Assembly: GCA_965218435.1 (NCBI GenBank)
Contig: CBDCKW010000009.1
Location: 3,680,001-3,744,000 of the forward strand
Length of the DNA stretch: 64,000 bases
Direction: 5' to 3'
From: Truepera sp.
Lineage (GTDB): Bacteria > Deinococcota > Deinococci > Deinococcales > Trueperaceae
A program made the position numbers and the translations under genes. The notes below the pieces were generated by a model. That model worked only from the letters and a program-made list of their open reading frames with translations. It did not search any database and had not been told where the DNA came from. Positions 23,763-39,038 of this stretch are shown one piece after another. The number at the start of each line of letters is the position of its first letter. Positions within the stretch are counted from its first letter, which is position 1.

Positions 23763-24110
23763 GTGTCAGACCTAACAAACGACCTAGCAGACGATCTAAA
23801 TGACGTGGATAACGTCACAGCAGTAGCCCCGGAGTGTTTGCACCTTGACCCGGAAACCCGGAAAACTGCCATATTGCGGCTGAAAAGTGCCAAGGGACAC
23901 CTCGAGGGTATCTTGCGGATGTTAGATAACCCGGAGGTCTACTGTGTTGACGTGATGAAACAGCTGAGCGCCGTCCAGGGCGCACTGACCAAAGTCAACG
24001 ACAAGGTGTTGCGTGCGCATATCAGAGACCACGTGGCCACCGCCGTATTGCGCGGCGACACGGAGCACATCGTTGCCGAGCTGATGGAGGCGCTGAAATA
24101 TAAAGGCTGA
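23763..24110 (+). CDS. csoR: CsoR family metal-sensing repressor
   Basis: RLKSAKGHLEGILRM..YCVDVMKQLSAV..HIRDH, divergent from copA. Confidence 0.88.
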   Translation: MSDLTNDLADDLNDVDNVTAVAPECLHLDPETRKTAILRLKSAKGHLEGILRMLDNPEVYCVDVMKQLSAVQGALTKVNDKVLRAHIRDHVATAVLRGDTEHIVAELMEALKYKG

Positions 24111-24195
24111 CAAACTGTAGGGCTCGCCGTACTCAGCCGTAAACCGAGTGTCCTTTTTTTAACTCCGGCAGCTCTAGCTCGCAATCTTTTAGAAC

Positions 24196-24262
24196 TTTCA
24201 GTATTGACTAAAAGCTTAAAAGAGACTATATTTGCCAAAAGAGGTTTCAGTTATTTCTAAAC
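24196..24262 (+). promoter_or_regulatory. Operon promoter with two putative autorepressor sites
   Basis: TTGACT(24204)-17-TATATT(24227). Imperfect dyads TTTCAG-N6-CTAAA at 24196-24213 and 24245-24262. Confidence 0.6.
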
Positions 24263-24276
24263 ATACAGAAAAACAG

Positions 24277-24720
24277 ATGTATCTCGAGGAACTGGGAATG
24301 GCCCTAGAGGGTTTGGGAATGCCCCGTATCGCTGGCCGGGTACTGAGTGCGCTGCTGGTAGCCGACCCCCCGGAGCAAACCGCCGAACAACTCTCAAAAA
24401 CGCTCCAGGCGAGCCGGGGAGCCGTCAGCGGCGGTACGACGATGCTTACAACGATGGGCCTGATTGAACGCCGCCGCCGACCGGGAGACCGTAAAGATTA
24501 CTTCTGCAACCGACCCAACGCCTGGTTCGAGGCGACCAAGCGGCAAGTCACCCTGATCGCGCAGCTCAGGCAGTTATCCGAAAAGGGGCTCGAGGTTCTG
24601 GGGAGTGACGACCCCGAAGTCACCAAAGGTTTGCGCGACATGCGCGACATGCTCACCTTTTACGAACGCGAACTGCCGGATATCTTCGCCCGCTGGGAGG
24701 AGAAAACCAGAAAGGAATAA
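24277..24720 (+). CDS. GbsR/MarR family transcriptional regulator
   Basis: GMPRIAGRV, LQASRGAVS and PGDRKDYF. Start may be ATT at 24253 (after AGAGG) rather than ATG 24277. Confidence 0.85.
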   Translation: MYLEELGMALEGLGMPRIAGRVLSALLVADPPEQTAEQLSKTLQASRGAVSGGTTMLTTMGLIERRRRPGDRKDYFCNRPNAWFEATKRQVTLIAQLRQLSEKGLEVLGSDDPEVTKGLRDMRDMLTFYERELPDIFARWEEKTRKE

Positions 24721-24722
24721 GG

Positions 24723-25949
24723 ATGAACACCTCAATCTCTAAACTCGCGTGGCGTAATTTGTGGCGGCACAAACGCCGCACGCAGCTCTTACTCGCTGTA
24801 GTGGCTTACGCAACGGTTGCTATCATCTTTTTTTGGGGTTTTTACGACGGCTTTGTCAATGTCCTGCTAGGCGGTCAAGCGCGTTACCTGAGCGCCCCGG
24901 TGATGGTGCAAACAGAGGCGTATCGTACCGACCCCGACCCGGAAAACCGGTTGCCGACGCTGAACTTCGACGATAAGCTCACTCAGATTGACGGGGTACG
25001 CGGCGCTGCGCCGAGGCTCGAGTTTCAAGCCCTGCTGCGCTCCCCGTACCGGACGCTCGGCGCTCAGGTACGCGGCGTCAATCCGGCGTTAGAAGGGCAA
25101 GTCAGCGATATTCCCGGCACCATCGGTGAGGGTCGGATGATCCAAAATTCGGGCGAACTCGTCCTCGGCAAAACGCTCGCTGAAGACCTCGACGTGCGTG
25201 TCGGTGAAAGGCTGGCTTTAGACGTGCAGTCACTGGCGGGTGCTCAGGGTACAGGCTTAAGGGTTGTCGGGCTGATTGACAGCAACATTGACCCCGTAGA
25301 CGAAGGCGTGGTGCTCGTTCACCTAGACGACGCACGGGCGCTCACAGGGGTTAAAACAGCGACGGGCGTCGCGCTAGACGTGCAGCAAGGCAGTGAAGAC
25401 GCCGTAGCCGAGGCGGTCAATAGTGCAGCCGTTTTACCTGTAGGCGTAGAGGCGTATCCCATTAAAGCCCTTTTGGGCGGTCTCATGGCAGGTATCGAAG
25501 GCAAACGCAGCTCGATGGTCCCCATTGTGCTGATCTTTGCGCTTTTCGCGGCTGTCACGGTGATGAGTACGGTGATCGTCAGCGTGATTGAACGTACCAG
25601 AGAGTTTGGAGTGATGACCTCGCTCGGGCTGAGCCAAAACCAACTTGCGCGGATGGTGACGCTCGAGGCCGTCTACACCACCCTGATCGGCTTTGTTGTC
25701 GGTGCTGCGCTGGGTTTCGGCCTCAACGCGCTCTTATCCATAACCAACCTGATGGGACCCTTTATCAAAACCTTTTACGGCAACTATCTGCAAGGTCTGG
25801 CGCTCAGCGACACCTTTGTCCTGGCAGCGAGCCTGAGTTACCTCGGCTGGGCCGCTGTGACCATCTTGTTTGCCGCTGTCTTAGCCGTGACCGTCCCCGG
25901 CAAACGCGTCCGCAACCTCAACTCTGCCGAGGCGATGCGGGCGAACTAA
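24723..25949 (+). CDS. ABC transporter permease, FtsX/LolC-E family
   Basis: LAWRNLWR, periplasmic domain, ERTREFG and AEAMR C-terminus. Confidence 0.9.
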   Translation: MNTSISKLAWRNLWRHKRRTQLLLAVVAYATVAIIFFWGFYDGFVNVLLGGQARYLSAPVMVQTEAYRTDPDPENRLPTLNFDDKLTQIDGVRGAAPRLEFQALLRSPYRTLGAQVRGVNPALEGQVSDIPGTIGEGRMIQNSGELVLGKTLAEDLDVRVGERLALDVQSLAGAQGTGLRVVGLIDSNIDPVDEGVVLVHLDDARALTGVKTATGVALDVQQGSEDAVAEAVNSAAVLPVGVEAYPIKALLGGLMAGIEGKRSSMVPIVLIFALFAAVTVMSTVIVSVIERTREFGVMTSLGLSQNQLARMVTLEAVYTTLIGFVVGAALGFGLNALLSITNLMGPFIKTFYGNYLQGLALSDTFVLAASLSYLGWAAVTILFAAVLAVTVPGKRVRNLNSAEAMRAN

Positions 25950-26000
25950 CAGAAGTCAGAAATCAGCATAGCGTCTCTGCTGATGACCGACTACTGACCA
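25950..26000. repeat. Heptamer-period inverted repeat array (empty site)
   Basis: CAGAAGT CAGAAAT CAGCATA .. CTGATGA CCGACTA CTGACCA. Confidence 0.75.
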
Positions 26001-26019
26001 CCCTCATCAAGGAGAAACC

Positions 26020-26757
26020 ATGAAGCTTAGTTACCTACTACTTACCTTCTTTCTTTCGCTCAGCTTTGCCGGTGCCCAAGATGCAGCGAGCATCCTAGAC
26101 ACCATCACCAATAACCTACGCGGCGAGTCGCAAGCTGCGACCCTAAACATGCAGGTGATCCGCCCGGACAAAGAAGATACCTACACGATGCGGATTTACA
26201 GCGAAGGTGAATCGAAAGGTCTGACCCGCGTCATCGCCCCGCCCCGCGACGCTGGCCAAGCGTTCCTAAACGATGGCGATAACGTCTTTATCTATAACCC
26301 CCGTCTGCGCCGCGTGCTGCGGCTGCCGCCGAGCGGTCAAAGCGATTCGTTTTTAGGTTCGGACATCTCGTACGACGACCTCGCCGGAGACGATTTACAA
26401 GAGAACTACTCGGCGAAGATTTTAGAAGAGACGGATAGTAGCGTGACGCTCGAGCTAACGCCCAACCCAAACGCCCCGACGCCCTACGGCAAAGTTCACC
26501 TGACTGCTGAGAAGCCCTCATACGCGCCCACTCAAATCACCTACTTCGACCAGCGCAACACGGCGGTTAAAGAGAATATCTTGTCGGACTACGCCGAGGT
26601 AGACGGGCGCTACATCCCGCAACAGTTTGAAGTCAAAGACTTGCTTACTGAAGGCAACATGACCGTTGTCACCTGGCAAGACGCGGAGTTCGGCGTTTCT
26701 ATTCCTGAGTCATGCTTTAGCCAAAACGCCTTAGAGCGTGAAGGAGCCTGCGAATGA
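26020..26757 (+). CDS. Outer membrane lipoprotein-sorting (LolA-like) protein
   Basis: Signal peptide, PPRDAG..L, IYNPRLRRVLRL and SFLGSDISYDDL. Confidence 0.85.
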   Translation: MKLSYLLLTFFLSLSFAGAQDAASILDTITNNLRGESQAATLNMQVIRPDKEDTYTMRIYSEGESKGLTRVIAPPRDAGQAFLNDGDNVFIYNPRLRRVLRLPPSGQSDSFLGSDISYDDLAGDDLQENYSAKILEETDSSVTLELTPNPNAPTPYGKVHLTAEKPSYAPTQITYFDQRNTAVKENILSDYAEVDGRYIPQQFEVKDLLTEGNMTVVTWQDAEFGVSIPESCFSQNALEREGACE

Positions 26758-27983
26758 TCGCTTTAGCTTGGCGCAACCTCTGGCGGCAGGGGCGGCGCAG
26801 CCTGATTTCACTGTTGGCGGTGGCTCTCGTGGTGCTCTTCGCCACCGTGATGTACAGCTTAGGCGGCGCGCTGACCAACGGGATGTACGGCGACTTGACC
26901 GCTGAGGTGGGCAACGCCCAGATTCGTCCTGAAGGTTACCGCGACGCCCGTAACTTTGACGATGGACTCTTAAAGGATGCCGCCGAGCTTAGGAAGACGG
27001 TTGCACAGACCGCGCCGGACGCCGTAGTCGTGGGTGCGTTACAAGTTCCCGGTCTCGTTGCGGGGGAAACCCGCTCGCGTGGGCTGGCCGTTCAGGGACA
27101 AGATTGGCCGGAACTGTTAAAAAAAGATTTTGTCAATGACCACCTTGCTAAGGGCAGCTTTGTTGAGGGCGATAACGTCACCGGCATTATGCTCGGGCAA
27201 TCTCTGGCTACAGCACTCAAAGTCGGCTTGGGCGATGATGTGTACGTCTATGCCCCCGGCACCGACGGGTACGGCGCAGCAGCTTATACGGTTGAAGGTT
27301 TGCTAGACTTTGACGATCCGAATCAAGAGATCAACGCGGCTTACTTGTCTCTCCCGGCGGCACAAGAACTTGCAGCACCGGATGGGTTGTCGAGGCTCGA
27401 GTTGCACTTCCCCGACATCAATACCTTAGATCAAGACAGTCAGGCGGTAGGCGAACTGACCCAGCTTAGAAACGCACTGCCGCAAGGGGCTGTTGTCGAA
27501 ACCTGGCGGCAACTCGATCCGAGTCTCGCCACACTGGTCAACTTCTTTACGCCCGTTTTAGTCGTGATGTCGTTGATTTTTTTCGTGCTGGCAGGTCTGC
27601 TCGTTCTCAACACGGTTTACCTGAGCACCTTGGAGCGTGTCCGCGAGTTCGGTGTGATTATCAGTTTGGGCGCACGCGGACGGCAGATCATGGGTATGGT
27701 CACCTTAGAAAGTGTCTTGCTGTGTATGACCGGTGCTGCCCTCGGTCTGGCACTTGGTTTGGGCTTTGTGGCGCTCGGTAGAAACGGTTTGACCTTACCC
27801 GGTTACACCGAAGAAATGCTCGCCGAGGTCGGCTTACCCAACGTCCTTTACCTCTCGGTTGACCCGTGGCAAATCTTGCTCGCTGTAGGCTTCGCCGTGT
27901 TGACCGCCTTTTTTGCGGCGCTCGGCCCCGCGCGAATGGCGGCCAACATCGAACCTGCCGAGGCGATGCGGTATACGGCTTGA
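26754..27983 (+). CDS. ABC transporter permease, FtsX/LolC-E family
   Basis: LAWRNLWR, ERVREFG and PAEAMR. ATGA overlap with the upstream gene. Confidence 0.9.
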   Translation: MIALAWRNLWRQGRRSLISLLAVALVVLFATVMYSLGGALTNGMYGDLTAEVGNAQIRPEGYRDARNFDDGLLKDAAELRKTVAQTAPDAVVVGALQVPGLVAGETRSRGLAVQGQDWPELLKKDFVNDHLAKGSFVEGDNVTGIMLGQSLATALKVGLGDDVYVYAPGTDGYGAAAYTVEGLLDFDDPNQEINAAYLSLPAAQELAAPDGLSRLELHFPDINTLDQDSQAVGELTQLRNALPQGAVVETWRQLDPSLATLVNFFTPVLVVMSLIFFVLAGLLVLNTVYLSTLERVREFGVIISLGARGRQIMGMVTLESVLLCMTGAALGLALGLGFVALGRNGLTLPGYTEEMLAEVGLPNVLYLSVDPWQILLAVGFAVLTAFFAALGPARMAANIEPAEAMRYTA

Positions 27984-27987
27984 CAAG

Positions 27988-28034
27988 CAGGAATCAGTAG
28001 TCAGCATTCGGTAGTAGGCTCAGCTATCAGGAGT
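27988..28034 (+). repeat. Heptamer array, left arm flanking the four-helix-bundle gene
   Basis: CAGGAAT CAGTAGT CAGCATT CGGTAGT aggct CAGCTAT CAGGAGT. Confidence 0.8.
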
Positions 28035-28075
28035 CAAGAGAAAAGTAATTATTGGCAATCGGCGGAAAGGTGGAA

Positions 28076-28441
28076 ATGATAGGACCGGCTAAAGTATTCA
28101 CGGATTTGGTCGTGTGGCAGAAGGCTCACGCCTTTGTGCTGGCTGTTTACCAACACACCGATGGTTTCCCCAGACAGGAAATCTACGGTCTAACTTCGCA
28201 GTTTCGGCGGGCTGCCGTTTCAGTTCCAGCGAACATCGCTGAGGGGTTTAGAAAACGGGGCAAGGCAGATAAAGCGCGTTATTACAACATCGCCCAAGGT
28301 TCGCTCGAGGAGTGCCGCTACTATCTCATTTTGAGTAGAGATTTAGGTTACGGCGACACCGATGACCTTACGCCCCACCTGGTCGAAACCAGCAAGCTAC
28401 TCGACGCTTTTATCAAATCTCTACTGAATTCTGAACGCTGA
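28076..28441 (+). CDS. Four helix bundle protein (23S rRNA IVS protein/Avd-like family)
   Basis: FTDLVVWQKAH, FPRQEIYGLTSQFRRAAVSVPANIAEG and IAQGSLEECRYYL. Confidence 0.92.
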   Translation: MIGPAKVFTDLVVWQKAHAFVLAVYQHTDGFPRQEIYGLTSQFRRAAVSVPANIAEGFRKRGKADKARYYNIAQGSLEECRYYLILSRDLGYGDTDDLTPHLVETSKLLDAFIKSLLNSER

Positions 28442-28452
28442 CTACTGACTAC
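28421..28452 (-). repeat. Heptamer array, right arm overlapping the four-helix-bundle stop codon
   Basis: cta CTGAATT CTGAACG CTGACTA CTGACTA c, complementary to the left arm. Confidence 0.8.
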
Positions 28453-28479
28453 ACGTAACTCTCGAAAAAGGAGAAACCT

Positions 28480-29178
28480 ATGTCTTTATTTACCGTAAAA
28501 AATCTGACCAAGACCTATCAAATCGGTGAGGTCAAAACGGACGCCTTACGGGGAGTTGACCTCAGGGTTGATAAGGGCGAGTTTACCGCTATCGCCGGGC
28601 CTTCGGGAAGCGGTAAAAGTACGCTGCTGCACCTCATGGGCGGCCTCGACCAACCCACCTCGGGCGAAGTTTATCTGAACGACAAGCGGATTGACCAGCT
28701 CAGTAAACAAGAGAGTGCGGCCTTGAGGCTCGAGCATCTCGGCTTCGTCTTTCAGGCGTATAACCTGATTCCGGTCCTGACAGCTTTGGAAAATGCGGCG
28801 TTTGTTTTAGAGCTCCGGGGTGTAGCTAAGAAAAAGCGTGAAGCTCGAGCCTTAGCGTCTCTTAAAGCTTTGGGGATAGCAGAGTTCGCCGACCGTAAAC
28901 CTAATCAGCTTTCAGGCGGACAGCAGCAGCGTGTCGCCGTGGCAAGAGCCTTCGCCGCCGAACCCGACATCATCTTGGCGGACGAACCTACAGCAAACCT
29001 CGACAGCAAATCGGGCGGTGACCTGATCGAACTGATGAAACGCCTGAACCGTGAGCAGGGCGTGACCTTCGTTTTTTCCACACACGACCCAAGACTTTTG
29101 GAACACGTCACGCGCACGGTTGAGATGGAAGACGGGCGCATTGTCGATACGGACAAGCTCGAGCCCGTCCTCGCCTAA
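28480..29178 (+). CDS. ABC transporter ATP-binding protein (LolD/MacB-like)
   Basis: GPSGSGKST, LSGGQQQRV and ILADEPTANLD. Confidence 0.95.
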   Translation: MSLFTVKNLTKTYQIGEVKTDALRGVDLRVDKGEFTAIAGPSGSGKSTLLHLMGGLDQPTSGEVYLNDKRIDQLSKQESAALRLEHLGFVFQAYNLIPVLTALENAAFVLELRGVAKKKREARALASLKALGIAEFADRKPNQLSGGQQQRVAVARAFAAEPDIILADEPTANLDSKSGGDLIELMKRLNREQGVTFVFSTHDPRLLEHVTRTVEMEDGRIVDTDKLEPVLA

Positions 29179-29184
29179 AAGAAT

Positions 29185-29258
29185 GAGAAGTCAGAATACA
29201 GGAGTCGGTAGTCAGCAGATTCATCCTAACTACTCGACTACTGAGCACTGACAACTAA
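29185..29258. repeat. Heptamer-period inverted repeat array (empty site)
   Basis: GAGAAGT CAGAATA CAGGAGT CGGTAGT CAGCAGA .. CTAACTA CTCGACTA CTGAGCA CTGACAA. Confidence 0.8.
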
Positions 29259-29261
29259 GAC

Positions 29262-30296
29262 ATGAGATTTTTCTTTGCTCTGTTGTTTCTTATCATCTCT
29301 TCTACCTTCGCCCAGCCCTACTACCGGGGTGAGGTAGAGTTTGCGCTGGACTCGAGCCTCAGCACAGCGTTTCCAGCCCAAAACGGCTTGACACTGGCAG
29401 GGCACCTCGAGGCCGGTTACGACTTGGACCTTGACGACTTGGGACTCAGTGACGCTTCTCCAGTTGCGTTTAACCTCGTCCTCGACCCGAGCATACACGT
29501 TAGCCAACTTGTTACGACCGAGCCAGGGCTGACCGAGCTCTACGCCGCGACAACTTACGGCGACGTTGACCTCAGCTTGGGCGTCGAGCGGCTGCCGTTA
29601 GAAACCGCCCGCTTGAGCGTGCCTTACAGCGTTGAAACCGTGGGGGTGCGGGGCGTTCGTCACGGTGTAGCGGGCGTGCGCGGCGTCTTTTATAGCGGCG
29701 ACTGGCGTGTGCGGGGAGCTGTCTTTTATAGAGACACTGAGCGAGATTTTCTCGAGAATGTGACGCCGCTCGTGAGTGTCAGCCGAACGTTTAACAGCTT
29801 TGACTTGGAGGCTCACGCGCTCTACCAAAACGGCCTCGTTGCCGGACTCAGTAGCAGCGGCTTGGTCAGCGACGTGGTGGTTTACGGCGAAGCGTGGCTT
29901 TTGGTGGACGCAGGTTTTAACGACGTTTCTGGGCGGGGCGCGTTGGGGCTGAACGGGAACCTGGCAACCGGAACCTGGACGCTCGAGGCTGCCTACCTAG
30001 CGCCGGGACTAACGAGCCTTAAAGACGATGACGACTTCTCTCCCTCACAACTGTCATCCACAGCCGACCCGCGTCCCGCAGTGCTGGGTCAGGTCACACT
30101 GCCACTCGGCGACGAGGGCGATATGAGCTTGTCGCTAACCGGTAACGCGTTTTTCGACCCGGACGCACTGCGTTCGGGTGTCGGCGCGGGCTATACGCTC
30201 TTTGGAGACAGCGAACTCACACTCGGCGCAGCGGCGCGGTTCGGGCCTGAACCTGTGGTTGCGACGCTCAGCTTGAGCCTAAAAGCGTTTTTCTGA
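29262..30296 (+). CDS. Hypothetical exported protein, probable outer-membrane beta-barrel
   Basis: Signal peptide, alternating amphipathic strands, C-terminal LSLSLKAFF. Confidence 0.6.
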   Translation: MRFFFALLFLIISSTFAQPYYRGEVEFALDSSLSTAFPAQNGLTLAGHLEAGYDLDLDDLGLSDASPVAFNLVLDPSIHVSQLVTTEPGLTELYAATTYGDVDLSLGVERLPLETARLSVPYSVETVGVRGVRHGVAGVRGVFYSGDWRVRGAVFYRDTERDFLENVTPLVSVSRTFNSFDLEAHALYQNGLVAGLSSSGLVSDVVVYGEAWLLVDAGFNDVSGRGALGLNGNLATGTWTLEAAYLAPGLTSLKDDDDFSPSQLSSTADPRPAVLGQVTLPLGDEGDMSLSLTGNAFFDPDALRSGVGAGYTLFGDSELTLGAAARFGPEPVVATLSLSLKAFF

Positions 30297-30436
30297 ATCT
30301 TTAGCTCGAGTCTAAGGTCGGTAGCTACTGCTGATTGGGTCCGCAAAGCCCTGTAAGACGTTATTCTTGCTGTCAACTTGACGCAACCTTTGCAAAATCT
30401 TGATGCAAAAAGCGCATACTTGCATTGGAGGAACTC

Positions 30437-31462
30437 GTGAGCAAATCAGCATTCCCAGAAAAGCTTACCAAGACGATTTTTGGCAGTACAGGCGTCGTCG
30501 TAGGTTCAGTTTTAGCCGCAGTGGGCGGTTGGTGGCTTTACAGCAGACTCGGTATCAACCATGACGCCGAACTGCCCCCGGCCATTGACGCACCCCGAAC
30601 CAACTTTACGACCAAGGCCGCCGGACGGCTGAATTACTACAAGAACGACAACGACAGTGGCACCCCCCTCGTCCTGCTTCACAGCGTCAACGCGGCGGCG
30701 AGCGCGTTTGAGGTGAAGCCGCTGTTTGACATGTACCGCAACACCCGCCCGGTGTACGCCCTCGAGCTTCCGGGCTACGGGTTTTCAGACCGCGCTGACC
30801 GGGACTACACGCCTGAGCTTTTTGCCGGGGCCTTCGGTGAGTTTTTAGAGACGCAAGTGGGTAAAGCCGCCGACGTGGTGGCGTTGTCGCTCAGCAGTGA
30901 GTTCGTAGCGAGAGCAGCCCTTACTGCCCCGCAGCTGTTCCGTTCCCTGACCCTGATTTCTCCTACCGGTATGAACACCAAACGCGAGGCGAGAGCCTCG
31001 GACAAAGCTGGAAAGGAAGGCGGCAACGAGACGTTTTACGCCGTCTCGTCAAACCCGCTCTGGGCAAGAGCGTTTTATGACCTGATTGCGACGCCTGCCA
31101 GCATCCGCTACTTTTTGCAGAAGAGTTTCGTCGGGCCGGTGCCCCAAGACCTAGCGCGTTACAGCTACCTGACCTCGCATCAACCGGGGGCCGAACACGT
31201 CCCGCTGCGGTTTATCGCCGGCAAGCTCTTTAGCCCGCAAGTCAGAAAGCGGGTTTACGAACAGCTGAACGTACCGACGCTGGTGCTCTTCGATGAAGAC
31301 GGCTTTGTCAGCTTTGAAAAACTGCCTACACTGACCGCTGCCAACCCCAAGGTCAAGGCAGTGAGGCTCGAGCCCTCGAAAGGCTTGCCGCAGTTTGAGA
31401 TGCCGAGCCGCACGGCGCAGGTGCTGGACAGCTTTTGGCGTGAAGTCGGCGTTCACACCTAA
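30437..31462 (+). CDS. Alpha/beta fold hydrolase
   Basis: PLVLLHS, LPGYGFSD and ALSLSS nucleophile region. GGAGG RBS before GTG. Confidence 0.8.
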   Translation: MSKSAFPEKLTKTIFGSTGVVVGSVLAAVGGWWLYSRLGINHDAELPPAIDAPRTNFTTKAAGRLNYYKNDNDSGTPLVLLHSVNAAASAFEVKPLFDMYRNTRPVYALELPGYGFSDRADRDYTPELFAGAFGEFLETQVGKAADVVALSLSSEFVARAALTAPQLFRSLTLISPTGMNTKREARASDKAGKEGGNETFYAVSSNPLWARAFYDLIATPASIRYFLQKSFVGPVPQDLARYSYLTSHQPGAEHVPLRFIAGKLFSPQVRKRVYEQLNVPTLVLFDEDGFVSFEKLPTLTAANPKVKAVRLEPSKGLPQFEMPSRTAQVLDSFWREVGVHT

Positions 31463-31558
31463 CGAGCTTTATAGCTGGGATGTGATTTGCTTGCGCCCAT
31501 CAAAAAGCCCCCGCTCTATACGGGGGCTCGACCACGCTGTCCAAGACAGCTTTTATTT

Positions 31559-31633
31559 TGGCTCCGCGGGTAGGGCTCGAACCTACGACCGATCGATTAA
31601 CAGTCGATTGCTCTACCACTGAGCTACCGCGGA
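31559..31633 (-). tRNA. tRNA-Asn(GTT)
   Basis: Reverse strand TCCGCGGTAGCTCAG..ATCGA-CT GTT AA-TCGAT..GGAGCCA. Confidence 0.97.
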
Positions 31634-31709
31634 ACACGCGCCCGCATAACGTTCAAGCAGGCGAAGCCAGTTTAACAGGGTGCGCTCGCCCTTGGCAAGT
31701 GCAAGGCGC

Positions 31710-33635
31710 TCAGACGTCCTCTAAGTACGTGTACCCCACTAACTCCGCACTGTACTTGCTGAGGAGCGCCTCAGCGTCCGGGCGCGACAGGGTACCGTTT
31801 GCCATCGCCTCATCCGCCTCTTCAATGAGCCAGTCCCGAAGCTGCGGTGCTTCGTAGCCCATATTTTCAATGACGCGGCGCGCCTTTTGACCATTGACGA
31901 TACGTTCGATGATGAAACCTTCGGGTGTCAAGCGGATGTGCGCTTCGTTGACACGGCCGAAGAGGTTGTGCGAGTTGGCCAGCACATCTTGGTATGCGCC
32001 CGTCAAAAACCCGCCTAAATAGTAGGGTTCCCCGTTGAGTTTGTGAAGTGGCAACGTCGCTTTGACGTCGCGGAGGTCGATAAACTTATCAATTTTACCG
32101 TCCGAATCGCACGAGATATCTACCAGCGTGGCGTCCCTGGTCGGTCTCTCGTCGAGCCGGTGCAAGGGCGCAATCGGAAAAAGTGCGCCGATAGCCCAGT
32201 GGTCGGGCAAGCTTTGGAAAAGGCTGAAGTTGCAGATATATTTGTCGGCTAAGAGCTTGGGCAAATCTTCGATGTCTTCAGGTACATAGTCCAAGTCGCG
32301 GACGATACGCCCGATTTTACTGAGCGTTTGGTAGTACAAGGTTTCGATGTGGGCGCGCTCTAAGATGCTCAAATAGCCCAGGTCAAACAGGCTGTGCATC
32401 GTGTCTTTATTACCTACCGCGTCGTTAAAGACCTCGCGGTAGTTTTTGAGCGTGACGGTCTCTAACAGCTCACGCATATCGCGGACGAGCGTGTGCGCGT
32501 CATCCGGCAAAGCCGGCAGCGTGACCGCGACCTGTGTCGGACCCACCGCGTCTATGACTGGTAAGACCAAAACCGCGTGGTGTGCGGTCAGGGCGCGGCC
32601 CGATTCGGAGACGACGATAGGGTGCGGCACGCCCGCTTCTTGGCAGGTTTCTAAGATCGTATAGATGACCGTATCGGCGTACTCTTGCAAGCCGTAATTG
32701 GCCGACGCGTGAAAACTCGTACGAGAACCGTCGTAATCTACTGCCAAACCGCCACCGACGTTTAAGTATTCGACCTCAACGCCGAGTTCGCGCAGCTCGA
32801 CGTAGGTCTGCGCCGCCTCGCGCACCGCCGCCCGGACTTTGCGGATGTCGGTGACCTGCGAGCCCACGTGACAGTGCACCATCTTGAGCGTATCCAACAT
32901 CCCCAAGTCGCGCAGTTTTTCGGTTGCGCCGATCATCTCGCCGGTGCTGAGGCCGAACTTGGCGTTGTCGCCGCCCGAGTCTTCCCACTTGCCTGAGCCC
33001 TGCGCGTGCAACTTAAAGCGTAAGCCCAAGGCCGGACGAATCCCCATTTCACGGCTGACCTTGAGGACGCGCCCTAGTTCCGTGTACTTCTCGAGGGTAA
33101 TCACGACGTTTTTATTTAGTCGCCGCCCCCAGAGTGCCAGCCGGATAAAGTCCTCGTCCTTAAAACCGTTACAGCATAAAAGCGCCTCAGGATGGAGGTC
33201 TTGCACCAAACAGAGCGCCAGCTCAGCTTTGCTCCCGGCCTCGACGCCGGTCCGGTAACGTGCGCCCGCCTCGGCGATGGTTTCTAGCACGACCCGGCGC
33301 TGATTGACCTTGATTGGGAAGACGCCTTGGTAGTGGTTTTGATACTCAAACTTCTCGGTGGCCGTAGCAAAGGCCCGGTTAAGCTGCGCCAGCCGGTCTT
33401 CTAAAATCTGCGGAAACCGTAAAATTAGCGGCAGCGCGTGACCTGCGTCCCGAAACTCGCGGATCATCCCCAGCAGCGGTGCTTTCATCCCGTCAAGCGT
33501 CACGTTCATCTCGCCGCGCACGCCGACCTCGAAGTAGCCGCCGCTCCAGTTGGGGACGCCGTAAAGTTCAGCCGCGTCGGACGCCTTAAAACGCTTGTCG
33601 AGCGCAGGGTTGGTTGTACGTTGTGTAAGGTTCAT
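31710..33635 (-). CDS. speA: Biosynthetic arginine decarboxylase
   Basis: FPIKVNQ (PLP Lys), EAGSKAEL, HVGSQ, VGGGLAVDY, DISCDSDG and HNLFG. GGAGG RBS. Confidence 0.95.
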   Translation of the reverse strand: MNLTQRTTNPALDKRFKASDAAELYGVPNWSGGYFEVGVRGEMNVTLDGMKAPLLGMIREFRDAGHALPLILRFPQILEDRLAQLNRAFATATEKFEYQNHYQGVFPIKVNQRRVVLETIAEAGARYRTGVEAGSKAELALCLVQDLHPEALLCCNGFKDEDFIRLALWGRRLNKNVVITLEKYTELGRVLKVSREMGIRPALGLRFKLHAQGSGKWEDSGGDNAKFGLSTGEMIGATEKLRDLGMLDTLKMVHCHVGSQVTDIRKVRAAVREAAQTYVELRELGVEVEYLNVGGGLAVDYDGSRTSFHASANYGLQEYADTVIYTILETCQEAGVPHPIVVSESGRALTAHHAVLVLPVIDAVGPTQVAVTLPALPDDAHTLVRDMRELLETVTLKNYREVFNDAVGNKDTMHSLFDLGYLSILERAHIETLYYQTLSKIGRIVRDLDYVPEDIEDLPKLLADKYICNFSLFQSLPDHWAIGALFPIAPLHRLDERPTRDATLVDISCDSDGKIDKFIDLRDVKATLPLHKLNGEPYYLGGFLTGAYQDVLANSHNLFGRVNEAHIRLTPEGFIIERIVNGQKARRVIENMGYEAPQLRDWLIEEADEAMANGTLSRPDAEALLSKYSAELVGYTYLEDV

Positions 33636-34304: not shown

Positions 34305-34701
34305 AGCTCCGTCTCCTCCAAGTCGGGTGGTAAGTTAGCTTTCAGATGGTCCACATGGACCTGAAAGGGTCTGTAACGCTACTTTAAGGCGTGCATTCTG
34401 ACAAAACTCTGACTCTTGGGGACACGGTGGTCTCAACCCAGGTCAATTGGCGCAGTTATCAGACAGCTTACAAAAAAGTCTCGCGTAAACTACACGGGAC
34501 AAAAGGAGCGTACCCAACATAATAAAGAGAGACCGGGCAGCTCGAGCCGACTCTGATTCGGACGTTTGTATAAGATAGTTTGTAGCTCTGCCTCAAACCG
34601 AGCTGCACCCACCAAAAAGCACCAAGGCTCTTAACACTTACCCACGACAAATTTTGTAAAGACGTAACGGTTTTAAGCTGAAGTGGTAGATGTTGGTTTC
34701 T

Positions 34702-34803
34702 TTAGCAGGTATCAGCTGGGCGGCAACGCTCTCAATCTAAGTTTAGCTGACCAGCACGCACATTCTGCGATGATACTTGTGGCGACCTCTTATGGAAATG
34801 CTA
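34702..34803 (+). repeat. Dispersed intergenic repeat, long copy
   Basis: Matches 19381-19482 (reverse complement) and 9084-9148. Confidence 0.9.
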
Positions 34804-35138
34804 CTTTGAGGTAAGGTTCGCTGAGATAACGAGGTAAGCCGAGAGAAACGAGTAGGATTGTGGTCAGCTTCGCAGTCGGTTTGATGGTTTGGTATATGGT
34901 CAACCTCCCGTCGCAAAGTATGCCCTTGCCGAACACCTATAGATACAGATTTATCTTACGGACGGCCGTCTAACGGACCCTAGGGTCAATCTGGGCGCAA
35001 CCTAAACGGATAACCTCGGCGTGACCTCTTTACCTCAGCAGAGACCGGAAAACGCGACCCGCCGAGCCAAAAGCGCCCAAGGTGGGTAGGGGCCAACCTT
35101 GGGCACGGTAAAGTGGAAATCAACGTCTTTAGGTCAGT

Positions 35139-38100
35139 CTAGCCGCACTTGCTGTAGCCGCAGGTGTAGCACTTGACGCAGCCTTCTTCACGTACTAAAG
35201 TGCCGCCGCACCCTTCGGGGCAGCTGGTCTTTTCTAACGCGGGGCTCTGAACGCCGGCGGTCTCGAGCGCCACTGCAATCAGATCAGCCTTAGACGCCAC
35301 CATCCGGCCCTGATACGAGCCGTACATCCCGCCGTTGATGCCGCGCAGCGTTTTCACAATCGCCTCAGCCGGAACCCCGTACTGCAGCGCAATCGAAACG
35401 AGTCGTCCGAGCGCCTCGGAGTCGGCCATAATCTCTTCGCCGCCCTTGCCCGACTGGATAAAGACCTCGGTCGGCAGATCGTCTTGCTTGTTCACAGTCA
35501 GGTAGAAGCTGCGCCGCTCACCGCTCGAGGTCGTCAGCTTTACGCTGTCGGTAAAGCCGACGAGCCGCCCCGGACGGTCAAAAAGGGGTTCACCGGGGAG
35601 ACGCTGAGGGTCTTCGGCAGCTTCTTGAACGGGGGCTGCTTGGGAACGTTGAGGTTGAGCAGCTTGGACGCCCGCTTTCTTTTTGCCGTCGCTCTTTTTG
35701 GTGGATAAGACCTGAAACTGCCTCGAGCCGTCGCGGTAGACCGTAATCCCTTTACAACCCGTGTCAAACGCTTGGCTGTAGGCGTCGTACACGTCTTGCA
35801 CAGTTGCGTGGTTCGGCATATTGATGGTTTTAGAGATGCTGTTGGCGACCCTTTCACCGCCCGCATCGAAGGCGCTCTGCACCGTGCCCTGCATCAACAC
35901 GTGTGCGCCCGGGGCGATGTCGTGGGCACAGACCAGCACGCGCTGCACCGCTTCGGGGATAAACGCGATGCCCTGCACGCTGCCGTGGTTGTTTTGCACG
36001 GCCTCGACTACTTTGTCCCAATCCCACGCGCCGTTTCTGGTGCAGTCTGGGTGCGGTGGGTGCTGCTCTAACATCTCGCGGAAAAGCGGGGAGACGAGCG
36101 CCGCATACGAGTCACCGATTTTGCGGTAGATAAAGGGCGCAAAGATGGGTTCAACGCCAGAGGAGACGCCCATCAGCATACTCGTCGTCCCGGTCGGGGC
36201 CACGGTCAAGAGGGCGACGTTACGGCGGGGAGTGTCCAAATCGCTCTCATTAAAAAGCGGAAACGCGCCGCGCTCCCCAGCGAGTTCTCGGCTCGCCTGC
36301 GTCGCACCCTCACGTAGTTCGTCAATCATCGCTTTGGCGGCGGCGCGGCCCTCGGGCGCGTCGTAACGGAGGCCCATCTTGATAAGCGCGTCGGCCAGTC
36401 CCATAATGCCGAGCCCAAGTCGCCGCAGCTTCATGCTCATGCTGCGGTTATCTTCTAAGGCAAAACGGTTGACGTCTAGGACGTTATCCAGAAATCTGAT
36501 ACAGGTCTTGGTGTCATCCTTAAAGCTTGCCCAATCAAAGCCGCTGAGCCCTTGGTCGGGTGTCTCGACGTACTGCGCGAGGTTGATTGCGCCCAAGTCG
36601 CAGGGTTCACCGGGAAAAAGGGGGATTTCTCCGCATTGGTGGGCGACAATACCGTTGGCAACAACCGAGTGGGCAACCGGTTCGGTCGTGTCGTAAACAC
36701 TCTCTATACCTTCAAAGACGATCTCGGTCACAACTGTTTCAAATGGTTCTGTATTTGAGGGGCGTTGTTTAGAGGCGATAAAATCAAGAACGCGTTGCTG
36801 CTTACTGCGCGTTAGAAAACCGATTTTATGGGCAAACAGATCACGGTTAATTTTATCCAGCATAAGCTCGTATTGACTGGCGTGCGGATAGAGCTGCGTG
36901 CCTCCTTTGCCGTCCGGCATTGCGCGTACACCCGCCTCGCGGCGCTGGTAGAGACGCGAGACGAGACCGAAGTTAGAAAGCAAGAGTTGAACGTCTTTTA
37001 GCAAAGTTTCGGACGAACTTGCCAGCCGAATACTACAACTCTTCTTGCTACAACTAAGATTGACCGTACCGTCAGCAGTAAAAAGCCCCTGCAAAAAACC
37101 CACGACCGCCTCACGTGGTGCCGAGAAGATGCTCTCAGGCACACGTTTGTTGATCGCTTTTTCAGAGCCTAATCCTAGCGCAGCCAAGTAGCGAATCACG
37201 ACCTTGCCAAACCTGATCTGTGAGCAGCTAGCATGATGCTGGACGCTTCCACCAAACCACGCTTTGTACTGGGCAATCGTGTCTTTTAACTCCTCGTAAT
37301 CACTTTCTGAAAAGGTAATACCTGCTTTATCCTCACTTACGAAGCCGTCGCCCACCATAAATCCTAGAAACGCGCCGAGGTCGCGGCTCCACCGCTCCGG
37401 CATACCCCCAAACTTCTCGCGTACATCCTTGCGCCCTGTACGTGAGGTAACGTCACCACGGTTGTTGCTACCCGCCGTTGCCAGCAGTTCAGCGTGCGCA
37501 GAGAGGACTTCGTGGGTAAAAGCATAGTGATCGCTCCACATCCCCTCAGCACTCTGAACGAAGAGCGTGTCACCGGTAGAGAGTTCAGCGAGTTCTTTCC
37601 AACCGTCTGGTGTCAAAAATTTGTGATTCGCCGTGGCGCGCACCTCAAAACCGTGCTTAGTGGTAACTCGGTAGACCTTTTCAGCTTCCGAAGTCTTAAA
37701 CACAGGAACGGCAGCTCGAGGGGTAACGCCTAAACCGTTTGTCAATACGCGGCGGTCTGAAGCGACTACAAGTTCTTCCTGGGTTTTGTAAAGCTCTCCT
37801 AAAGTGAGGAGGCCACGCTGCGTGGCGATGCGAACATCTGCGGGAAAACACGGATTCGTTGCCTTGATGTCCCCGAGCGCCCCCCGCATCGGATTAAACG
37901 CGTTGATCCGGTCTATAAAAATGAGTCCCGGCTCACCGGTCTGCCACGCGTGCTCGGCCACGTCTTGCAGTACATTTCGCGGTACATTTTGCTGTACGCC
38001 GGACGCACGCGTCTTTTTTGCGGCTTCCATAAACGTGTCTGAAACGAGCACCGAGATGTTAAAGGTGCTGATGTCGCCCTCGGCCTCTTCGCGCTCCAAG

Positions 38101-39038
38101 TCTTTACAGGTGATGAAGTCCTGAATATCGGGGTGCGTGACCGACATCGTCGCCATCCCTGCGCCGCGCCGGGTGCCGCCCTGCCGAATCACGCGCAACG
38201 TCGGGGCGAAGATATAACGGAGCGTTGCAATAGGTCCGGCGTAAGCTGCGCCGCCCAAGGACGCCCAAAGTGCGAAGTTGTCGAAGACCTCGACGGCAAA
38301 CGATGACGGCCCGCTGCTGCTGCCGCCCGAACCCTCGACCGGCGTTCCTTCAGCGCGGAGCCCGGACAGGTCTAAAAGCAGATCGTCGCCGGTAAGGACT
38401 GAGCTGACCGCCTCACTCGCGCTCTGCCAGATGCTTTCGACCGAATCACCGACGTTTACAGTCGGCAGCGCGTCGGGTACTTCGTCTTGCTCTAAAAAAG
38501 AGGCGTAGCGGTAACCTTTGCTCACATATTTGCCGTGAACGAGGTCCATATAAGTGCCACTTTTGACCTTGGCGTAGTCGGGGTGCGAGGCTGAAATCGT
38601 GAGGTAGAGCCCGCCAGTACGTGCGTTGTAAGGGCGTTTGGGCGAAAGCGGGTCGAGACAGAGGCCGTTACCGCCACCGACTTTGGTCACAAGCGCCAGT
38701 TTGGTCGCTAGGTGCATCACCCAAGCGTCGGTACCGACGGTTTCCGGTGAGCCGTCCTGAACAAAGCAGTTGAGCACGTTGCCGTGGTTGGTTGCCGCGC
38801 CCGCGAGAACTCGTCCACCGGGGCAGAAACGCTTCGAGGCCATCAGATCGAAGAACCGTTCCTCGAGCCCCCCCCGTTCCCTTTCAGCTTCCGGTGACGC
38901 TACCCACGCCGCTACTCGGCCGAACAACCCGGCTAAGTCGTCATCCCCCGGCTGAAAATATTGCCGTTTGGCGATGGTTACGGCGTGCTCATCGAAGTCG
39001 CTCAGCATAGGGTCTACTCGTTCGGGCTGTGTACTCAC
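35139..39038 (-). CDS. nrdJ: Class II (adenosylcobalamin-dependent) ribonucleotide reductase with intein
   Basis: PGGRVLAGA, NCFV, RQGGTRRGAGM, GEPGLIF, TNP|CGEIPL, APTGT, KGITVYRDGSR, C-terminal TSCPD-like domain and Zn ribbon. Confidence 0.93.
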   Translation of the reverse strand: MSTQPERVDPMLSDFDEHAVTIAKRQYFQPGDDDLAGLFGRVAAWVASPEAERERGGLEERFFDLMASKRFCPGGRVLAGAATNHGNVLNCFVQDGSPETVGTDAWVMHLATKLALVTKVGGGNGLCLDPLSPKRPYNARTGGLYLTISASHPDYAKVKSGTYMDLVHGKYVSKGYRYASFLEQDEVPDALPTVNVGDSVESIWQSASEAVSSVLTGDDLLLDLSGLRAEGTPVEGSGGSSSGPSSFAVEVFDNFALWASLGGAAYAGPIATLRYIFAPTLRVIRQGGTRRGAGMATMSVTHPDIQDFITCKDLEREEAEGDISTFNISVLVSDTFMEAAKKTRASGVQQNVPRNVLQDVAEHAWQTGEPGLIFIDRINAFNPMRGALGDIKATNPCFPADVRIATQRGLLTLGELYKTQEELVVASDRRVLTNGLGVTPRAAVPVFKTSEAEKVYRVTTKHGFEVRATANHKFLTPDGWKELAELSTGDTLFVQSAEGMWSDHYAFTHEVLSAHAELLATAGSNNRGDVTSRTGRKDVREKFGGMPERWSRDLGAFLGFMVGDGFVSEDKAGITFSESDYEELKDTIAQYKAWFGGSVQHHASCSQIRFGKVVIRYLAALGLGSEKAINKRVPESIFSAPREAVVGFLQGLFTADGTVNLSCSKKSCSIRLASSSETLLKDVQLLLSNFGLVSRLYQRREAGVRAMPDGKGGTQLYPHASQYELMLDKINRDLFAHKIGFLTRSKQQRVLDFIASKQRPSNTEPFETVVTEIVFEGIESVYDTTEPVAHSVVANGIVAHQCGEIPLFPGEPCDLGAINLAQYVETPDQGLSGFDWASFKDDTKTCIRFLDNVLDVNRFALEDNRSMSMKLRRLGLGIMGLADALIKMGLRYDAPEGRAAAKAMIDELREGATQASRELAGERGAFPLFNESDLDTPRRNVALLTVAPTGTTSMLMGVSSGVEPIFAPFIYRKIGDSYAALVSPLFREMLEQHPPHPDCTRNGAWDWDKVVEAVQNNHGSVQGIAFIPEAVQRVLVCAHDIAPGAHVLMQGTVQSAFDAGGERVANSISKTINMPNHATVQDVYDAYSQAFDTGCKGITVYRDGSRQFQVLSTKKSDGKKKAGVQAAQPQRSQAAPVQEAAEDPQRLPGEPLFDRPGRLVGFTDSVKLTTSSGERRSFYLTVNKQDDLPTEVFIQSGKGGEEIMADSEALGRLVSIALQYGVPAEAIVKTLRGINGGMYGSYQGRMVASKADLIAVALETAGVQSPALEKTSCPEGCGGTLVREEGCVKCYTCGYSKCG
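36636..37850 (-). mobile_element. Intein (405 aa) with LAGLIDADG homing endonuclease and C-terminal His-Gln
   Basis: Block A CFPADVRI, block B ATANHKF, LGFMVGDG and FLQGLFTADG, block G ANGIVAHQ|C. Confidence 0.93.

Follow-up and report, generated by a model that had tools for sequence, protein, structure and literature searches.

A four-helix-bundle gene between inverted heptamer arms: a candidate transposase-free passenger cassette at operon junctions of Trueperaceae and other bacteria

Some intervening sequences (IVSs) of 23S rRNA carry an open reading frame (ORF) of the four-helix-bundle family S23p/PF05635/TIGR02436, and for the IVS of Coxiella burnetii, PMC4990558 describes terminal inverted repeats, heptameric repeats ahead of the S23p ORF and cleavage by RNase III in vitro. 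TIGR02436-type genes also figure among strain-specific genes (PMC8700078) and lie inside cas operons (PMC3936711), their likeness to Avd, a helper protein of diversity-generating retroelements (DGRs), has been pointed out (PMC10053308), and all five protomers of Avd contact one stem-loop (10.1101/2023.10.23.563531). Intergenic heptamer repeats have been described as well, with S1, Csp or Csr proposed as their binders; the terms four-helix, helix bundle, intervening and pentamer are absent from that paper (PMC4679880). Searches of the open-access literature, confined to main texts, turned up no report that connects TIGR02436 genes outside rRNA with heptamer arrays at their flanks. Here we analyze a window, meaning the whole stretch of 64,000 nucleotides from Truepera sp. 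(GCA_965218435.1, contig CBDCKW010000009.1, positions 3,680,001 to 3,744,000, forward strand), in which a TIGR02436 gene between two inverted arms of 7-nt repeats sits inside an operon of ATP-binding cassette (ABC) genes.

The package of gene and arms recurs across phyla. Within the family Trueperaceae it turns up in this operon in lineages scattered over the operon tree, at either of two junctions and both in sense and inverted, in place of a plain spacer. Gene and arms are very probably a mobile unit. We lean towards reading this unit as a selfish, transposase-free passenger cassette that was likely moved by recombination, and we suggest more tentatively that the TIGR02436 protein promotes its own spread.

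The gene and its arms

The locus lies on contig C9 of the host genome (G000; 100% complete) in a seven-gene operon for a MarR-type regulator, a LolC/E-like permease, a LolA-like protein, a second permease, the TIGR02436 protein, a LolD-like ATPase and an unknown gene product. We refer to the spacer between permease 1 and the LolA-like gene as J1, that between permease 2 and the ATPase gene as J3, and that between the ATPase gene and the last gene as J4. The three are the operon's sizeable spacers, and all three (3/3) contain 7-nt units of the CAGnAGT type followed by their complements, as the initial annotation of this DNA had claimed for every sizeable spacer. Its two empty hairpins, at 25950-26000 and 29185-29258, both fold as gene-free hairpins, at -17.2 kcal/mol for J1 (25950-25996; z -3.53, with 0 of 200 shuffles equally stable) and at -22.2 kcal/mol for J4 (29185-29258; z -2.29, 2 of 200 shuffles). 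Folding also confirmed its description of J3 as two arms split around the gene with the right arm over the stop codon: the stretch 27994-28011 forms a stem with 28431-28448 in which 17 of 18 positions pair, one of them as G-U, this closing stem is present in both the minimum free energy and the centroid folds, with pairing probabilities of 0.81-1.0 where sampled (four pairs), and every base of the stop codon (28439-28441) is paired. The full 506-nt J3 segment was no more stable than shuffles (z -0.89), and the count of long-range pairs did not discriminate the closing stem (33-56 in filled alleles, 0-48 in random windows). The arms of the operon's arrays are able to cross-pair, and a scan of the window, in agreement with the first reading, found no arrays beyond the operon's own.

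The likely start of the TIGR02436 gene is the ATG at 28076, and its G+C content at third codon positions (0.545) is below that of the host genes (0.62-0.67). Its product scores 114.5 bits against TIGR02436 (cut-off 24) and 119.3 against PF05635 (cut-off 33.8); all family matches were to four-helix-bundle families, with no match to a nuclease or transposase, and the DivGenRetAVD model gave 23.4 bits, below its cut-off of 80. The predicted structure has four helices (predicted local distance difference test [pLDDT] score, 92.8) and matches the pentameric 2GSC (Xcc0516; template modelling [TM] score, 0.89), 2RLD and Avd (TM score, 0.75). A four-copy model scored 0.55 against 0.00 for the best control, with contacts agreeing to at least 97% between runs and a pLDDT of at least 82, a mark that 20 of 30 solved pairs attained, as did 1 of 23 single chains; this score shows likeness only, as a like complex has already been solved, memory of 2GSC is possible and four copies rather than five were modelled. 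The protein is thus predicted, from modelled likeness to a solved ring, to self-associate. Judged from homologous sequences, it is under purifying selection, with nonsynonymous divergence well under synonymous divergence in 14 of 14 homologue pairs.

The initial annotation had proposed that gene and repeats form one unit, and this is borne out by close homologues in other bacteria. In a set of 80 close homologues, drawn from named genomes that span many phyla, both arms were detected in 66 and the stop codon lay within the right arm in 62. Among the 78 of these loci with enough flank for a matrix-free periodicity test, a lag-7 periodicity of at least 13/21 was found in 83% of upstream flanks, 91% of downstream flanks and 4% of control windows; there was no excess at lags 3-6 or 8-12, and the upstream/downstream duplex reached z < -3 at 52 loci. 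An independent metagenome set of 80 loci, 69 with enough flank, was scored with the matrix of the first set and yielded a left arm in 49, a right arm in 61, both in 42 and a stop codon inside the arm in 54, with arms in the wrong orientation at just 2 (left) and 8 (right) loci. The mode of arm length was five units in both sets; its correspondence to a pentamer was examined by unit counting only. By eye, the left arm also provides GGAG and the ATG in many loci. More distant TIGR02436 clades in related genomes have other heptamer types, and viral contigs contained 1 distant homologue among 38 candidates.

Across species, the same type of junction can hold different TIGR02436 clades with different heptamers (L059, L064 and L072 versus L071, and L053 versus L055); the junctions concerned are chorismate-binding/GATase (trpE-trpG-like) and aconitase/aconitase-C (leuC-leuD-like). 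Two further TIGR02436 genes occupy different junctions in a molybdo-hydroxylase operon. This pattern suggests hot-spot junctions between subunit genes.

The host genome has one TIGR02436 gene and many arrays. With a matrix built from homologue flanks, contig C9 has 93 arrays at a score of at least 18, against 3 in shuffled C9. At a score of at least 16, the genome has 114 arrays: 22 combine into 16 hairpins, a dispersed repeat of unrelated appearance accounts for 54, and 38 stand alone. Where opposite arrays form a close pair, the purine-rich arm precedes the other in 10 of 12 cases, the same polarity as around the gene. Of the 16 hairpins, two are no more than 2.1 kb away from the single TIGR02436 gene (chance of about 1.4e-4 under uniform placement), and the other hairpins that we checked (6 loci in G000 and 8 in G001) sit between unrelated metabolic genes. 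Across 37 family genomes, at least 10 pattern matches were found in 8 of 8 with any TIGR02436 gene versus 3 of 29 without, counted with a loose pattern that has high control counts in some genomes; a strict pattern missed most G000 arrays. Genome-wide arrays with no link to the gene family would, according to the initial annotation, speak against it; the arrays are indeed genome-wide, but the link to the family is there.

The dispersed repeat is a degenerate intergenic element of about 200 nt with about 100 copies in G000 (for example, L156-L175, among them C9:3846810-3847010; 116 nhmmer matches at E <= 0.01, mean column identity of 46%). It bears a one-sided array, mostly of 4-5 CAG-type heptamers, and has just 0-3 weak matches in each of five relatives. 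It is possibly an element resembling a miniature inverted-repeat transposable element that has captured an arm.

Filled, plain and hairpin-only junctions

Among 128 Trueperaceae genomes, the LolA-like gene of the operon is present in 51 and a close TIGR02436 homologue in 5, and four of these five copies sit in this operon. The gene is at J3 in sense orientation in G000, at J3 as a frameshifted pseudogene with drifted arms in G073, at J3 but inverted with intact arms in G001, and at J1 in sense orientation in G023; a metagenome contig (L289) has an intact copy at J3, likewise in sense. Of 42 fetched operon loci, 37 were readable at J3 (2 filled, 1 with a heptamer hairpin of another type, 34 plain), 41 at J1 (1 filled, 3 with unrelated cargo, 7 with flagged hairpins, of which 5 have arms matching the matrix, and 30 plain) and 30 at J4 (29 plain), as sorted by a classifier whose flagged hairpins without matrix arms in G077, G148 and G134 are probably false and which missed short hairpins in G072, G074 and G036b.

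None of the 37 orthologous J3 spacers had an empty hairpin of this heptamer type, and in a relative about 93% identical in DNA, J3 is plain, with 27976 joined to 28468 across a 25-letter spacer. The unfilled J3 sites being plain, the comparison does not support entry of the gene into a ready-made hairpin at J3, or an exit that leaves one behind, as the earlier suggestion of a cassette that inserts into or excises from the hairpins would have it. The comparison of filled and empty sites that had been called for did reveal variation in presence, position and orientation, but a pair of filled and empty-hairpin sites exists only at J1 and between distant species. No target-site duplication is visible against plain spacers, the closest empty allele being about 93% identical with its spacer replaced rather than interrupted. 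We also considered the join across the gene in the relative as excision within this strain; it was ruled out, as the relative is diverged and its spacer consists of 25 other letters.

In the operon tree, the sister operons of G000, of G073 and of G001 are all gene-free (SH-aLRT support of 96-99), and G000, G001 and G023 fall into one clade of the protein tree (SH-aLRT support of 98; 93 rows). By a hand count, a history of four gains is the more parsimonious one; starting from a single gain would call for about 11-13 clean losses as well as a move and a flip. The operon of G000 is 76-81% identical to those of G004 and G005, similar to the identity of neighbouring genes, and therefore was not recently imported as a block.

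Two contigs that are 92-95% identical to J1 have in common a two-sided change from U-A to G-C at 25963/25983 and, at 25985, a change that restores a pair, and each has one additional pair-forming change; one also has a broken pair and has lost four outer bases, and the two contigs are perhaps not independent. Quasi-palindromes can self-correct through template switching, which could produce pair-keeping changes such as those in the J1 alleles. Covariation over eight paralogous hairpins was uninformative, with a two-sided change in 1 of 9 pairs. By eye, J1 hairpin units are similar to J3 arms inside one genome (G000, G001 and G073). In run X1, a second allele of similar depth, about 8% diverged, covers window positions 25859-26175, while nearby parts of the operon are a single identical contig; this allele is possibly a recombination tract across J1.

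Other contents of J1 were also seen. In G001 (L050), the spacer combines a long CAG-type left arm with a right arm of another heptamer type, which matches repeats of a different TIGR02436 clade. In other relatives, J1 holds a short-chain dehydrogenase (G005, with a similar ORF in G008) or a glycosyltransferase (G021), at L032:1305-2252, L036:1280-2320 and L044:855-2150.

The features of the operon are collected in Table 1. A promoter scan (3 versus 2.4) and a terminator scan (5 versus 7.3) were both at chance level, and an Rfam search returned one tRNA and one chance match, with no rRNA match in 24000-32000. Elsewhere in the window lie a tRNA gene (31562-31633, minus strand), a 1299-amino-acid ribonucleotide-reductase-like ORF with an apparent intein-type insert by eye (35139-39038, minus strand) and a second dispersed repeat of about 100 nt (34700-34805), which matches G005 at dozens of sites and G004 at several.

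Table 1. Coordinates of host genes, repeat arms and the TIGR02436 gene in the window
Feature	Position	Strand	Remarks
MarR-family regulator, first gene of the operon	24232..24720	+	PF12802, E 2.1e-8
LolC/E/FtsX-like ABC permease 1, host gene	24723..25949	+	
Permease 1 3' end	25913..25940	+	matches 27944-27971 with 86% identity across 28 nt
J1 gene-free hairpin, left purine-rich CAG arm	25950..25971	+	3 units; begins directly 3' of stop codon
J1 gene-free hairpin, right CTG arm	25975..25996	+	pair-keeping changes in related alleles
LolA-like periplasmic protein, host gene	26020..26757	+	PF17131, E 3.5e-44
LolC/E/FtsX-like ABC permease 2, host gene	26754..27983	+	
J3 cassette left arm	27988..28041	+	4 CAG-type heptamers, 5-nt slip, 3 further heptamers
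Four-helix-bundle gene, TIGR02436/PF05635, 121 aa	28076..28441	+	TIGR02436, E 2.7e-33
J3 cassette right arm	28424..28452	+	covers last codons of the gene, provides TGA stop
LolD-like ABC ATPase, host gene	28480..29178	+	
J4 gene-free hairpin, left arm	29185..29219	+	5 units
J4 gene-free hairpin, right arm	29229..29258	+	
Last gene of the operon, host	29262..30296	+	no match in Pfam or NCBIfam

How the cassette may move

The cassette is positioned after a host stop codon and before the next ribosome-binding site, where it would be carried along on the host transcript, and the closing stem would loop the passenger out of the host mRNA so that the operon tolerates it. By analogy with Avd, the predicted pentamer likely binds its own arm, as RNA or single-stranded DNA, contacting about five of the purine-rich heptamers with one unit per protomer; such binding would keep protein and repeat type matched and would likely favour copying of the cassette. 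Movement would occur by recombination-type replacement via the host rather than through a transposase of the cassette's own or RNase III-type excision. J1 and J3 share an upstream flank in the alike 3' ends of the two permease genes (Table 1), a possible route between the two junctions, and symmetric arms may let the cassette flip. The gene-free hairpins are likely derivatives formed by internal deletion, which would last and spread in the manner of small REPIN-like units.

Several observations weigh against this favoured model of a selfish passenger. The mobilizing step is one that we infer from sequence comparison, and the protein tree lacks G073, G077 and L289. A single old insertion with about 11-13 precise losses, though less parsimonious, is still tenable. 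The permeases of G001 and G023 are just about 47-55% identical to those of G000, which is distant for homologous transfer, and gene-free J1 hairpins are kept in G004 and G075, whose genomes yielded no close homologue. In G000, 92 of the 114 arrays are one-sided and outside hairpins. The gene is thus not required for arrays to exist, and array load follows any TIGR02436 gene rather than the cognate clade, a relation confounded by GC content and kinship. Finally, the five-unit mode depends on the threshold and has a tail of up to 33 units.

A wider generalization of the passenger model, which we regard as doubtful, is that TIGR02436 genes are the autonomous members of an undescribed, transposase-free class of mobile elements. 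In such a class, a non-enzymatic pentamer would read five heptamers, one with each protomer, drive the copying of cassettes and hairpins into operon junctions, revisit junctions via flank homology and be the source of the intergenic heptamer arrays of many bacteria, with the 23S rRNA IVS as a special case.

The trp RNA-binding attenuation protein (TRAP) is an 11-mer ring on NAG repeats with a 5-nt period, and the initial annotation had raised a comparable ring on periodic CAG triplets that controls the operon mRNA. As a regulator that serves the host, such a ring on the periodic NAG triplets of the three spacers would set processing, termination or subunit ratio of the operon. The placement of two hairpins close to the single gene, the pair-keeping changes in J1 alleles, purifying selection on the protein, cross-pairing of the arms and the residence of four of five family copies in this operon are consistent with such a role. 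However, the gene is absent from the operon in 47 of 51 operon-bearing genomes, antisense in G001 and broken in G073, only L076 and L289 among all 160 close homologues lie in this operon, and the other hairpins checked adjoin unrelated genes, making operon control of this kind unlikely.

Retro-mobility, in which an Avd-like pentamer would hold the stem-closed RNA and recruit a reverse transcriptase (RT) encoded elsewhere so that the cassette is copied to new operon junctions, is in our view quite unlikely. Support for it comes from the fold in common with Avd, which 10.1101/2023.10.23.563531 describes as a stem-loop-binding RT cofactor, from the RT genes of G000 (7 matches, none near the locus), G023 and G073, and from embedding in the host direction, with 23 sense versus 2 antisense copies among unambiguous collinear cases in 108 loci, most of which were ambiguous. 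Conversely, no RT was found in the gene carriers G001 (99% complete, one contig) and G077, none lies in or beside the cassette, the G001 copy is inverted and the match to the Avd model falls well below its cut-off.

Alternatively, slippage-made simple repeats might promote local recombination and carry along a protein of unrelated role that does not act on the arrays. That the arrays are abundant, degenerate, mostly one-sided and present without the gene agrees with such passive hitch-hiking, and self-correction of quasi-palindromes by template switching would also explain the J1 changes. We nevertheless consider it improbable, given that arm polarity and position are fixed relative to start and stop, heptamer type tracks protein clade, arms have a five-unit mode and the association of gene and arrays is kept across phyla.

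Very improbable is an mRNA version of the 23S rRNA IVS, in which RNase III would cut the stem, free the gene-bearing RNA and split the operon transcript: the architecture is as in the Coxiella IVS (PMC4990558), but the locus is not inside an rRNA gene and the RNase III catalytic domain was not found in G000 (PF00636, none; TIGR02191, part binding double-stranded RNA [dsRNA] only) or in five relatives (G001, G005, G023, G036 and G073) by searches that were positive in 8 of 14 control genomes, so that IVS-type excision is unlikely. G000 does have a stand-alone dsRNA-binding domain at C9:1243734-1243952 (L305:1501-1719, minus strand).

Comparison with known systems

Like the ORF-bearing IVSs of 23S rRNA (S23p/PF05635/TIGR02436), the cassette has an ORF within terminal inverted repeats that close a stem, in sense to the host transcript, and it shares with the Coxiella IVS a variable number of heptameric repeats before the start codon (PMC4990558). 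Unlike these IVSs, it lies in a protein-coding operon, its junction and orientation vary, and it has gene-free hairpin copies in a host with no RNase III domain found. As in the system of REPINs, hairpins formed by repetitive extragenic palindromic (REP) elements, and their REP-associated tyrosine transposases (RAYTs), a single gene has inverted-repeat flanks and gene-free hairpins (16 genome-wide) are dispersed extragenically; in contrast, the RAYT is a tyrosine transposase (PMC3116915) and the protein here is a four-helix bundle, and the cassette arms are tandem heptamers, whereas REPs are palindromic, with most arrays lying outside hairpins. The intergenic TAACTGA repeats described for Beggiatoaceae, Cyanobacteria and Bacteroidetes in PMC4679880 match the right-arm unit at L132. 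The fold is also that of DGR Avd (4DWL and 8UB7), and a pentameric barrel whose five protomers bind a stem-loop, as in Avd, is by analogy a plausible model for the cassette protein, but identity is 10-13% and ABC genes adjoin the TIGR02436 gene, which has neither an RT nor a template or variable repeat next to it. A ring on periodic NAG triplets, as in the TRAP attenuator, offers a possible binding geometry; unlike TRAP, the cassette has a period of 7 with no excess at lag 5, probably has five protomers and is patchy and mobile, and we know of no ligand control for it.

The comparison joins three loose ends, namely, a very widespread protein family with no known function, ORF-bearing rRNA IVSs and unexplained intergenic heptamer repeats. 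If a ring does drive the spread, we would be dealing with a mobile element that has no transposase, and an origin for the DGR helper Avd would be suggested. Trueperaceae provide a natural experiment: in this one family, whose examined hosts yielded no RNase III, the junctions occur filled, with the gene inverted or broken, as plain spacers and as hairpins only. Recurrent targeting of one operon, inversion and probable independence of RNase III are the aspects that we single out. In build the cassette resembles an ORF-bearing IVS and in distribution RAYT/REPIN, but it misses a defining feature of each.

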